A stretch of DNA of 64,000 nt, from contig NC_092346.1 of NCBI RefSeq assembly GCF_963676685.1, forward strand, positions 105,276,001 to 105,340,000, given 5' to 3'. The position numbers and the translations under genes were made by a program. Positions within the stretch are counted from its first letter, which is position 1. Each line of letters begins with the position of its first letter. The notes below the pieces were generated by a model. The model worked only from the letters and a program-made list of their open reading frames with translations. It was not told where the DNA came from and searched no databases. This document shows positions 25,699 to 27,217 of this stretch, piece by piece. Origin of the DNA: Mytilus edulis (taxonomy: Eukaryota).

Positions 25699-25859
25699 GT
25701 ACAAGTTCTCAGTATTTGACAAGTGAGTACTGCCAGGGTATCTATTGTGGAGATATGCAATCGTCAACAAAATGTAACAGCTGTTGTCAAGACACAGGAT
25801 TTAGTCGAGGTGGAGAGTGTTCTTATGACAAGTGTTTATGTTACCTTAACAAGGGGTAA
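25699..25859 (+). CDS. Mature-peptide exon of the 68-aa Cys-rich precursor: (G)TSSQYLTSEYCQGIYCGDMQSSTKCNSCCQDTGFSRGGECSYDKCLCYLNKG*
   Basis: Phase-1 acceptor aag ending 25698 matches the upstream exon; 8 Cys with CxxxC, GxC and CxC motifs; donor gg|gtaagt at 25856; the unspliced (ggg taa) and spliced (gg|a taa at 27713) forms both end KG-stop. Confidence 0.85.
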
Positions 25860-27217
25860 GTGTTGTTTAACATTAATACGTTCTTATGACAAGTATTTAT
25901 GTTACCTTAACAAGGGGTACGTGTTGTTTAACATTATTACGCTCTCATGACAAATGTTTATGTTACCTTAACCAAGGGGTACGTGTTGTTTAAAATTATT
26001 ATGTTCTTATGACAAGTGTTTATGTTACCTTCACGAAGGTACGTGTTGTTTAACATTATAACGTTCTTATGACAAGTTTTTATGTTACCTTAACGAGGGG
26101 TATGTGTTGTTTAACATTATAACGTTCTTATGACAACTGTGTATGCTACCTTAACAAGGGGTACGTGTTGTTTAACATTATAACGTTCGTATGACAAGTG
26201 TTTATGTTACCTTAACGAGGGTTACGTGTTGTTTAACATTATAACGTTCTTATGACAAGTGTTTATGTTACCTTAACGAGGGGTACGTGTTGTTTAACAC
26301 TTATACGTTCTTATGACAAGTGTTTATGTTACCTTAACGAGGGATACGTGTTGTTTAACATTATTACGCTCTCATGGCAAATGTTTATGTTACCTTAACC
26401 AAGGGGTACGTGTTGTTTAACATTATTATGTTCTTATGACAAGTGTTTATGTTACCTTAACGAAGGTACGTGTTGTTTAACATTATAACGTCCTTATGAC
26501 AAGTATTTATGTTACCTTAACGAGGGGTACGTGTTGTTTATATTATTATGTTCTTATGACAAGTGGTTATGTTACATTAAAGAGAGGTACGTGTTGTTTA
26601 ATATCATTACGTTCTTATTACAAGTATTTATGTAAGCTTAACGAAGGTACGTGTTCTTTAACATTATAAAGTTCTTATGACTAGTATTTATGTTACCTTA
26701 ACGAGGGGTATGTGTTGTTTAACATTATTACGTTCCTATGACAAGTATTTATGTTACCTTAACGAGGGGTACGTGTTGTTTAACATTATTACGTTCTTAA
26801 GACAAGTGTTTATGTTACTTTAATGAGGGGTAAGTGTTGTTTAATATTATTAAGTTCTTATGATAAGTGTTTATGTTACCTTAACGAAGGTACGTGTTGT
26901 TTAATATTATAACGTTCTTATGACAAGTGTTTATGTTACCTTAACGAGGGGTACGTGTTGTTTAGTATTATTACGTTCTTATGACAAGTATTTATGTTAC
27001 CTTAACAAGGGTACATGTTGTTTAACATTATAACGTTCTTATGACAAGTATTTATGTTACCTTACGAGGGGTATGTGTTGTTTAACATTATAACGTTCTT
27101 ACGACAAGTATTTATGTTACCTTAACGAGGGTACGTGTTGTTTAATATTATTACGTTCGTATGACAAGTGTTTATGTTACCTAAACGAGGGGTACGTGTT
27201 GTTTTAGGTTATTACGC
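25819..27217 (+). repeat. 61-bp minisatellite (~23 copies) made of the peptide exon 3' end plus its splice donor
   Basis: Unit gttcttatgacaagtgtttatgttaccttaacgaggggtacgtgttgtttaacattattac; the first copy is the coding end of the exon. Confidence 0.95.

Follow-up and report, generated by a model that had tools for sequence, protein, structure and literature searches.

The window, a 64,000-nt stretch of Mytilus edulis DNA (NC_092346.1, positions 105,276,001 to 105,340,000, forward strand), carries a gene of which three exons were located, together with a minisatellite and a series of donor-like sites:

24531..24583, + strand: exon A, probably exon 2 of the gene; joined to exon B in 3/3 probable RNA runs
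25699..25855, + strand: exon B, 157 nt, putative mature CS-alpha-beta peptide, phase-2 end (split Gly codon); contigs X1, X3 and X5
25819..27216, + strand: minisatellite, 23 units of 61 bp; both ends present in the DNA-type run X15
25853..25861, + strand: donor 1, GGG/GTAAGT, cut at 25855/25856; X3 record 22 (depth 543) and X5 record 32 (depth 15)
25917..27197, + strand: 22 downstream pseudo-donors (first G at 25917, 25979, 26039 ... 27192), 20 of them with GT
27713..27808, + strand: exon C, terminal, at least this long; predicted acceptor and loose end of X3 record 22

Exon A comprises 7 nt of 5′ UTR, an ATG at 24538, 15 hydrophobic codons and a phase-1 donor (TCG/GTAAGT); its leader was judged by eye to be signal-peptide-like. 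Contigs from runs X3 and X5 extend 5 and 14 letters upstream of exon A, which implies a further 5′ exon outside the located ones. No differing letter was found inside exon B in contigs X1 (to 25847), X3 and X5. Exon C contributes a single coding base and the stop, followed by 3′ UTR. Together, exons A and B encode a 68-residue precursor, of which 52 residues come from exon B (P0001). These hold eight cysteines with the spacing 4-8-2-0-10-4-1, and 4 basic and 5 acidic residues, for a net charge of about −1. CxxxC and CxC are the usual wording of the cysteine-stabilised helix motif. Both were present, as C25-C29 and C45-C47, alongside a GxC gamma-core (G38-x-C40). The criteria for the CS-alpha-beta superfamily were taken from PMC5116183.

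Database matches to the exon B peptide were weak. Pfam Toxin_2 matched at E 0.04, below the Pfam cut-off; the best match among PDB sequences was a plant defensin at E 0.11, with short scorpion peptides besides; and the Atlas matches, all scoring 0.85 or less, are leads only. All of these weak sequence matches belong to one fold. No candidate relative of the mature peptide was found among 5.8 billion proteins, and a search among 1.84 billion returned one match, to a 4054-aa protein that aligned in 19 stretches and was taken for probable cysteine-rich noise. A single-sequence structure model (pLDDT 64) predicted a helix at 21–31 and strands at 38–41 and 44–48. Foldseek with this model returned nothing at E ≤ 0.001. 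In a wide structural search, the top six matches were five plant defensins and drosomycin, with Z of 5.1–6.1, a middling range, and rmsd of 1.6–2.0 over 43–46 residues; the strongest, plant defensins and drosomycin, reached Z 5.8–6.1. We read the gene product as a putative secreted CS-alpha-beta (defensin-fold) peptide of defence type, whose activity would follow only by inference. The family name does not predict antimicrobial or channel-binding activity. The adjacent CC pair resembles that of chlorotoxin-type scorpion peptides, to which weak sequence matches were also found.

The peptide can also be compared with those already known from mussels. Mussel defensins, mytilins and myticins likewise have eight cysteines, with a predicted helix and two strands (PMC7168163, PMC7356231). 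The myticin gene is described as having four exons, with the signal peptide on exon 2, the mature peptide on exon 3 and the C-terminal region on exon 4 (PMC7356231), and the three located exons fit this plan, each of them carrying one of the signal peptide, the mature peptide and the 3′ end. Unlike myticin, however, the present gene has a final exon that gives one coding base and a stop, with no C-terminal extension. Membership of the mytilins was rejected: the array given for these is C-X3-C-X3-C-X4-C-X11-C-X-C-X-C-X2-C, with a cationic core and an anionic C-terminal extension (PMC7168163), whereas the exon B peptide shows the spacing and the net charge of about −1 given above, and no extension. 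In the literature searched, mostly outside subscription journals, no mussel description of this cysteine array was found. The peptide thus appears to be undescribed, though the myticofensin family may already include it. Beyond the exon C stop, the reading frame meets no other stop for 18 codons (27717–27773) and includes several acidic residues, possibly a relic of a C-terminal extension such as other mussel defence peptides carry.

Tandem Repeats Finder delimited the minisatellite at 25819–27216, with a period of 61, 23.0 copies, 88% matches and a score of 2118. When cut at a fixed anchor, the units were 60–62 nt each, with a mean identity to the consensus of 92.7% (range 84–98%), a similarity far above chance. 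Every unit consists of 37 nt of exon end and 24 nt of intron start. Unit 1 (25819–25879) is made of the final 37 nt of exon B itself (25819–25855) and the initial 24 nt of the intron, and straddles a genuine exon–intron boundary, with the spliced contig departing from the genome at 25855/25856. The 31 letters ahead of donor 1 are unlike those of any other unit, so that joints made at it could be told apart. Units 2–4 differ from units 9–11 at only 3, 2 and 1 positions, compared with 7–8 for a typical pair. This near-identity is the mark of a block duplication, and turnover among the tandem units is evident from the recurrence. The longest match of the 61-bp unit elsewhere in the window was ≤13 nt, and no second copy of the gene (by tblastn) or of the array was found within the 64 kb. 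A genome-wide satellite captured by the gene was considered and rejected: translated, the unit gives the peptide's conserved CxC terminus, and it was found nowhere else in the window, the scale at which the search was made.

It is extremely improbable that the array was inflated or invented by the assembler. Run X15 may be the window's own source. The units, however, carry private variants, and three properties of X15 agree with one another: its exon contig breaks at the predicted graph branch; an 838-nt contig fits units 22–23 and the flank with 12–13 differences and 1 gap; and its summed depth is ~200 on array bins against ~10 on exon B, which fits ~20 copies but is not a copy count. Because contig break, long contig and depth concur, we do not regard the array as an assembly artefact. 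Two array contigs from X3 had no exact match to any unit pair in the window; these may represent another allele or a chimeric assembly path.

The position of the stop codon determines what a change of donor would do. On read-through, the Gly codon at the end of exon B is followed by an in-frame TAA (25857–25859) that overlaps positions +2 to +4 of donor 1. When donor 1 is joined to the acceptor at 27713, the split Gly codon is completed and a TAA comes next (27714–27716). The two routes yield an identical peptide because the terminal exon stops immediately, as the preliminary description had held for every choice of donor. The reverse proposition, that the stop is solely intronic and donor choice alters the C-terminus, was rejected because the next exon stops at once. 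The overlap of stop and donor is generic to any phase-2 intron starting GTAA and indicates no special design. From the read-through stop to the exon junction the distance is 57 nt for donor 2, 119 nt for donor 3 and 1332 nt for donor 23, so that for all of donors 2–23 the junction lies more than 50–55 nt past the stop; the earlier figure of about 57 nt or more was accurate. An ATTAAA is present at 26576, within unit 13, and an AATAAA at 27448, behind the array. A read-through transcript could end at either of them, still within the intron; it would encode the same peptide and have no junction after the stop.

Donor sequences across the units were then compared. Over 23/23 units the hexamers were GTACGT (15), GTATGT (3), GTAAGT (2) and GTACAT (1), with no GT in the remaining two, units 7 and 9. 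The two GTAAGT sites belong to units 1 and 17, at 25856 and 26830. These letters match the preliminary description, which gave gtaagt for copy 1 and again near 26830, and mostly GTACGT or GTATGT otherwise. Its count of ~23 tandem donors holds for the units, of which there are 23, but only 21/23 keep the GT (20/22 of those downstream). Donor strength was measured as U1 pairing energy, a substitute for the score of a trained splice model. Donor 1 and the donor of unit 17 each pair at −12.2 kcal/mol; among the other downstream sites, 18 pair at −7.7 to −8.4 kcal/mol and three at −4.1 to −5.0 kcal/mol. The consensus donor is weakened at +4, to about −8 kcal/mol. As a background, 3412 GT sites elsewhere in the window were scored: 1.3% reach −7.7 kcal/mol and 1/3412 reaches −12. 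Downstream copies are thus plausible donors, as 19/22 pair at −7.7 kcal/mol or better, within the top 1.3% of GT sites in the window. Donor 1 is the authentic donor, being both the first and the strongest, with unit 17 equal in strength. RNA folding gave mean unpaired probabilities of 0.43, 0.34 and 0.19 for donors 1–3, values that depend on the folding window.

Evidence for donor use came from contigs. Among 24 runs listed, eight hold at least half of the 11 sampled exon B words; all are contigs, and none is recorded as RNA. Four of the eight (X1, X3, X5 and X15, from four studies) were aligned to 24250–25940, a region that contains exons A and B and donors 1–2 and excludes exon C and the remaining array. 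X1, X3 and X5 were classed as probable RNA by guess, and X15 as DNA-type. The exon A–B joint (GT..AG, 1115 nt) was present in 3/3 probable RNA runs, at depths of 2.4, 543 and 15, and absent from X15. In several bins, unique parts of the upstream intron had no RNA-type coverage, a blank that was given no weight. Separately, 12 runs with five organism labels (X6–X14 and X18–X20) each hold 4/11 of the exon B words, and this shared content may reflect a commoner allele or a paralogue, although neither these runs nor four same-study runs with almost none of the words count as evidence of a paralogue or of gene presence/absence.

In X3, the contig of record 22 (310 nt, depth 543) spans exons A and B as far as 25859, differs from the window at a single letter and then carries a 92-nt loose end. 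Of these 92 letters, the 30 that were read agree with 27717–27746 at 29, and donor 1 is therefore joined to 27713. Record 32 of X5 (depth 15) leaves the genome where X3 record 22 does, shares its one differing letter and carries another 60 letters; no X5 contig lies beyond it, and exon C letters behind donor 1 were read in X3 only. The X1 contig ends at 25847 and is uninformative on the donor, because this is the position at which a 31-letter graph branches when array sequence is present. The dominant RNA was thus shown to use donor 1 in two studies (2/3 probable RNA runs). This confirms, from a junction seen in RNA-type contigs, the exon end, first donor and downstream terminal exon proposed beforehand. 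It lends no support to, though it does not refute, the accompanying proposal that the copies serve as alternative donors: the dominant contigs use donor 1, whose U1 pairing beats that of 21/22 others.

Among the loose ends listed for the three probable RNA runs, in the region of donors 1–2, no use of a downstream donor was found in the contigs. A later-donor joint could not have been listed, because the region held donors 1–2 without exon C; rare isoforms could be missing because contigs drop rare forms; and downstream-donor isoforms could be scarce because nonsense-mediated decay (NMD) would deplete exactly those. X3 does contain array-type contigs, at a depth of 3–4 each and 7–13 summed, at most about 2% of the spliced form. 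At the diagnostic positions 25859 and 25895, all of those counted carry the letters of other units, and in none are the unit 1-to-unit 2 read-through letters found. These contigs fit intron or genomic reads over the 22 copies, and are indistinguishable from rare long isoforms.

Such contigs bear on the possibility that splicing leaks, unregulated, to donors 2–3 in a few percent of transcripts, independently of total array length, by analogy with the human 6-16 and CBS genes, for which use of nearby extra donors is reported (PMC1557585). The products would encode the same peptide and would be removed or tolerated. Donors 2–4 are intact and well above background, which keeps leakage plausible, as does the presence of the low-depth array contigs. 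Those contigs, though, lack the unit 1-to-2 read-through letters expected of it and are explained equally well by intron or genomic reads over 22 copies, and X5 has no array contigs. On balance, we consider leakage of this kind unlikely.

The pattern of change among the units was examined for signs of constraint. Variants were concentrated at CpG columns, with 3.2 cells per column against 1.2 (permutation p = 0.04). In the exon-like part, 8/26 distinct changes were synonymous, p = 0.047 when unweighted, rising to p = 0.17 (kappa 2) and 0.28 (weight 3) with transitions weighted. The donor G has changed in two units, at least as often as the average column, and stops, indels and loss of the seventh cysteine were common. 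Eleven of the 22 copies lack a CxC cysteine or have a stop, and the other 11/22 keep both cysteines without a stop; with indels also excluded, 6/22 are clean, and 5/6 of these carry the same single Lys-to-Glu difference. The array copies look to be decaying like neutral DNA.

This decay also weighs on the suggestion that the array is a reservoir of variant C-termini, which gene conversion or unequal crossing-over would carry into exon B. The variant translations described earlier (KYLC, KCLC and NCVC) are present in the copies; the units, 84–98% identical to the consensus, include exchange blocks; in principle, a crossover could put another unit in place of unit 1; and mussel defence peptides are described as hypervariable (PMC7356231). 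The supply of usable variants is poor, however, with half of the copies having lost a CxC cysteine or gained a stop, and with the clean minority offering almost one variant only. Synonymous change shows no clear excess, and 4/4 aligned runs agree fully with the window over exon B, as far as they cover it, an agreement biased because the runs were chosen for holding all exon B words. A reservoir is accordingly a weak proposal, and we hold it very unlikely.

Several minisatellites are known that begin across an exon boundary. In intron 7 of human F7, a 37-bp VNTR starts across the exon 7 boundary, and the account in PMC1557585 has only the most upstream donor used. The same source gives the authentic donor as the only one used at the LMNB2 and PDGF boundary minisatellites, whereas at human 6-16 (IFI6) and CBS intron 13 the two nearest extra donors are also used; notation for the CBS VNTR is that of PMC2630376. 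Amphioxus 'mirage' minisatellites in Adh3 and the globin genes BflGb6/BflGb9 are reported to leave normal splicing undisturbed (PMC3087553).

The mussel array resembles that of F7 in that the first unit spans the boundary, the donor is reiterated in the intron and the most upstream donor is used. It differs in having 23 units of 61 bp with 37 nt of exon, in copies that have diverged and are mostly weaker than donor 1 where those of F7 are identical, and in its host, a mollusc rather than a mammal. The boundary, moreover, falls right where the coding sequence ends, and because of this mussel donor choice cannot change the protein. Copy numbers of 10–26 and units of up to 100 bp at 6-16, CBS, LMNB2 and PDGF (PMC1557585) are comparable, but the use of pseudo-donors described for 6-16 and CBS was not seen in the mussel at contig sensitivity. 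With the mirage minisatellites the array shares the features of invertebrate boundary duplications, many with splice signals, and of concerted unit turnover; length instability is demonstrated in amphioxus (PMC3087553), whereas the mussel array is known here from one allele. No mollusc boundary minisatellite was found in the literature searched. The mussel array is a further example of a known arrangement, and any regulatory role for it is a candidate only.

Taken together, these data favour, with a probability of roughly 70%, a by-product minisatellite of the 'mirage' or F7 kind, in which donor 1 is used and the rest are silent or nearly so. A tandem duplication of the 61 bp across the exon B/intron boundary would have come first, and slippage or unequal exchange would later have added further copies. 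By a mechanism inferred from F7, the spliceosome would define exon B (157 nt) by its first donor, which, as the one nearest the upstream acceptor and the best match to U1, would be chosen; the 22 other copies would be removed with the intron. As intronic sequence that drifts free of constraint, the copies would be tolerated, and the array would be cheap to carry because a slip to a later donor still gives the same peptide. The same-peptide outcome would then account for the cheapness of the array and not be its function.

The geometry of the stop nevertheless invites a regulatory alternative. If more copies led to more downstream splicing, with a junction >55 nt past the stop, NMD would lower the mRNA according to array length. 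An array of variable length would thereby set the share of transcripts lost to NMD and act as a splicing dial, giving graded, heritable peptide levels in each mussel; the dial would be protein-neutral because every donor gives the same peptide. Scarcity of the isoforms at steady state is compatible with it. An association with the CBS VNTR has reportedly been found. The distances of 57–1332 nt all lie beyond the 50–55 nt of the NMD rule (PMC4770240). Tandem-repeat length is described as affecting splicing or expression at ABCA7 (PMC6660495) and is linked to splicing at many human loci (PMC10078293), and a snail knockout study suggests that NMD may act in molluscs (PMC12277549).

Other evidence runs against such a dial. 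No downstream donor use was seen in the contigs, within the region of donors 1–2, and the copies show no more conservation at their donors than the background does. At F7, extra downstream donors are said not to compete at any number unless perfect (PMC1557585), and added far copies should therefore change nothing. Junction-dependent NMD is described as not being the rule in Drosophila or C. elegans (PMC4770240). The preliminary description had expected array length to tune expression; the precedents, which use the first donor only or the first three (PMC1557585), do not support this, and we regard a length-dependent dial as quite unlikely. Were it true, it would be a new source of individual variation in mussel immunity beside gene presence/absence.

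As a by-product minisatellite, the locus adds a bivalve to the hosts of exon-boundary minisatellites and gives the first-donor rule support from beyond the chordates, a modest advance. It is suited to tests of donor choice and junction-dependent NMD in molluscs without protein change, and because donor 2 lies at 57 nt it would be a natural reporter of the 50–55 nt rule in these animals. The host gene itself adds an expressed, putative CS-alpha-beta peptide with unusual cysteine spacing.

Other features of the window were recorded in passing. A second minisatellite (23922–24200, 34 bp × 8.2, 95%) lies 330 nt upstream of exon A, and its last unit ends in a donor-like CAG/GTAAAA; it may belong to the further 5′ exon. 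An array of 36 bp × 52 (17672–19540, 94%) has long open frames on both strands and probably arose by amplification of part of a dispersed repeat. Repeated matches between 12700–14400 and 15700–17200, with twin 34-bp arrays separated by ~3 kb, point to a local segmental duplication. Two long open frames with a similar starting motif, at 32870–34657 and 42817–43632 (+), probably belong, as large exons, to a single gene for a low-complexity protein. Open frames at 52266–55360 (+) resemble, by eye, LINE endonuclease and reverse transcriptase. On the opposite strand, a 478-codon frame (45530–46963, −) with ubiquitin-like domains had 2 matches among 4942 candidates: a protein named from Mytilus coruscus, at 79% identity, and an unnamed protein, at 96%.
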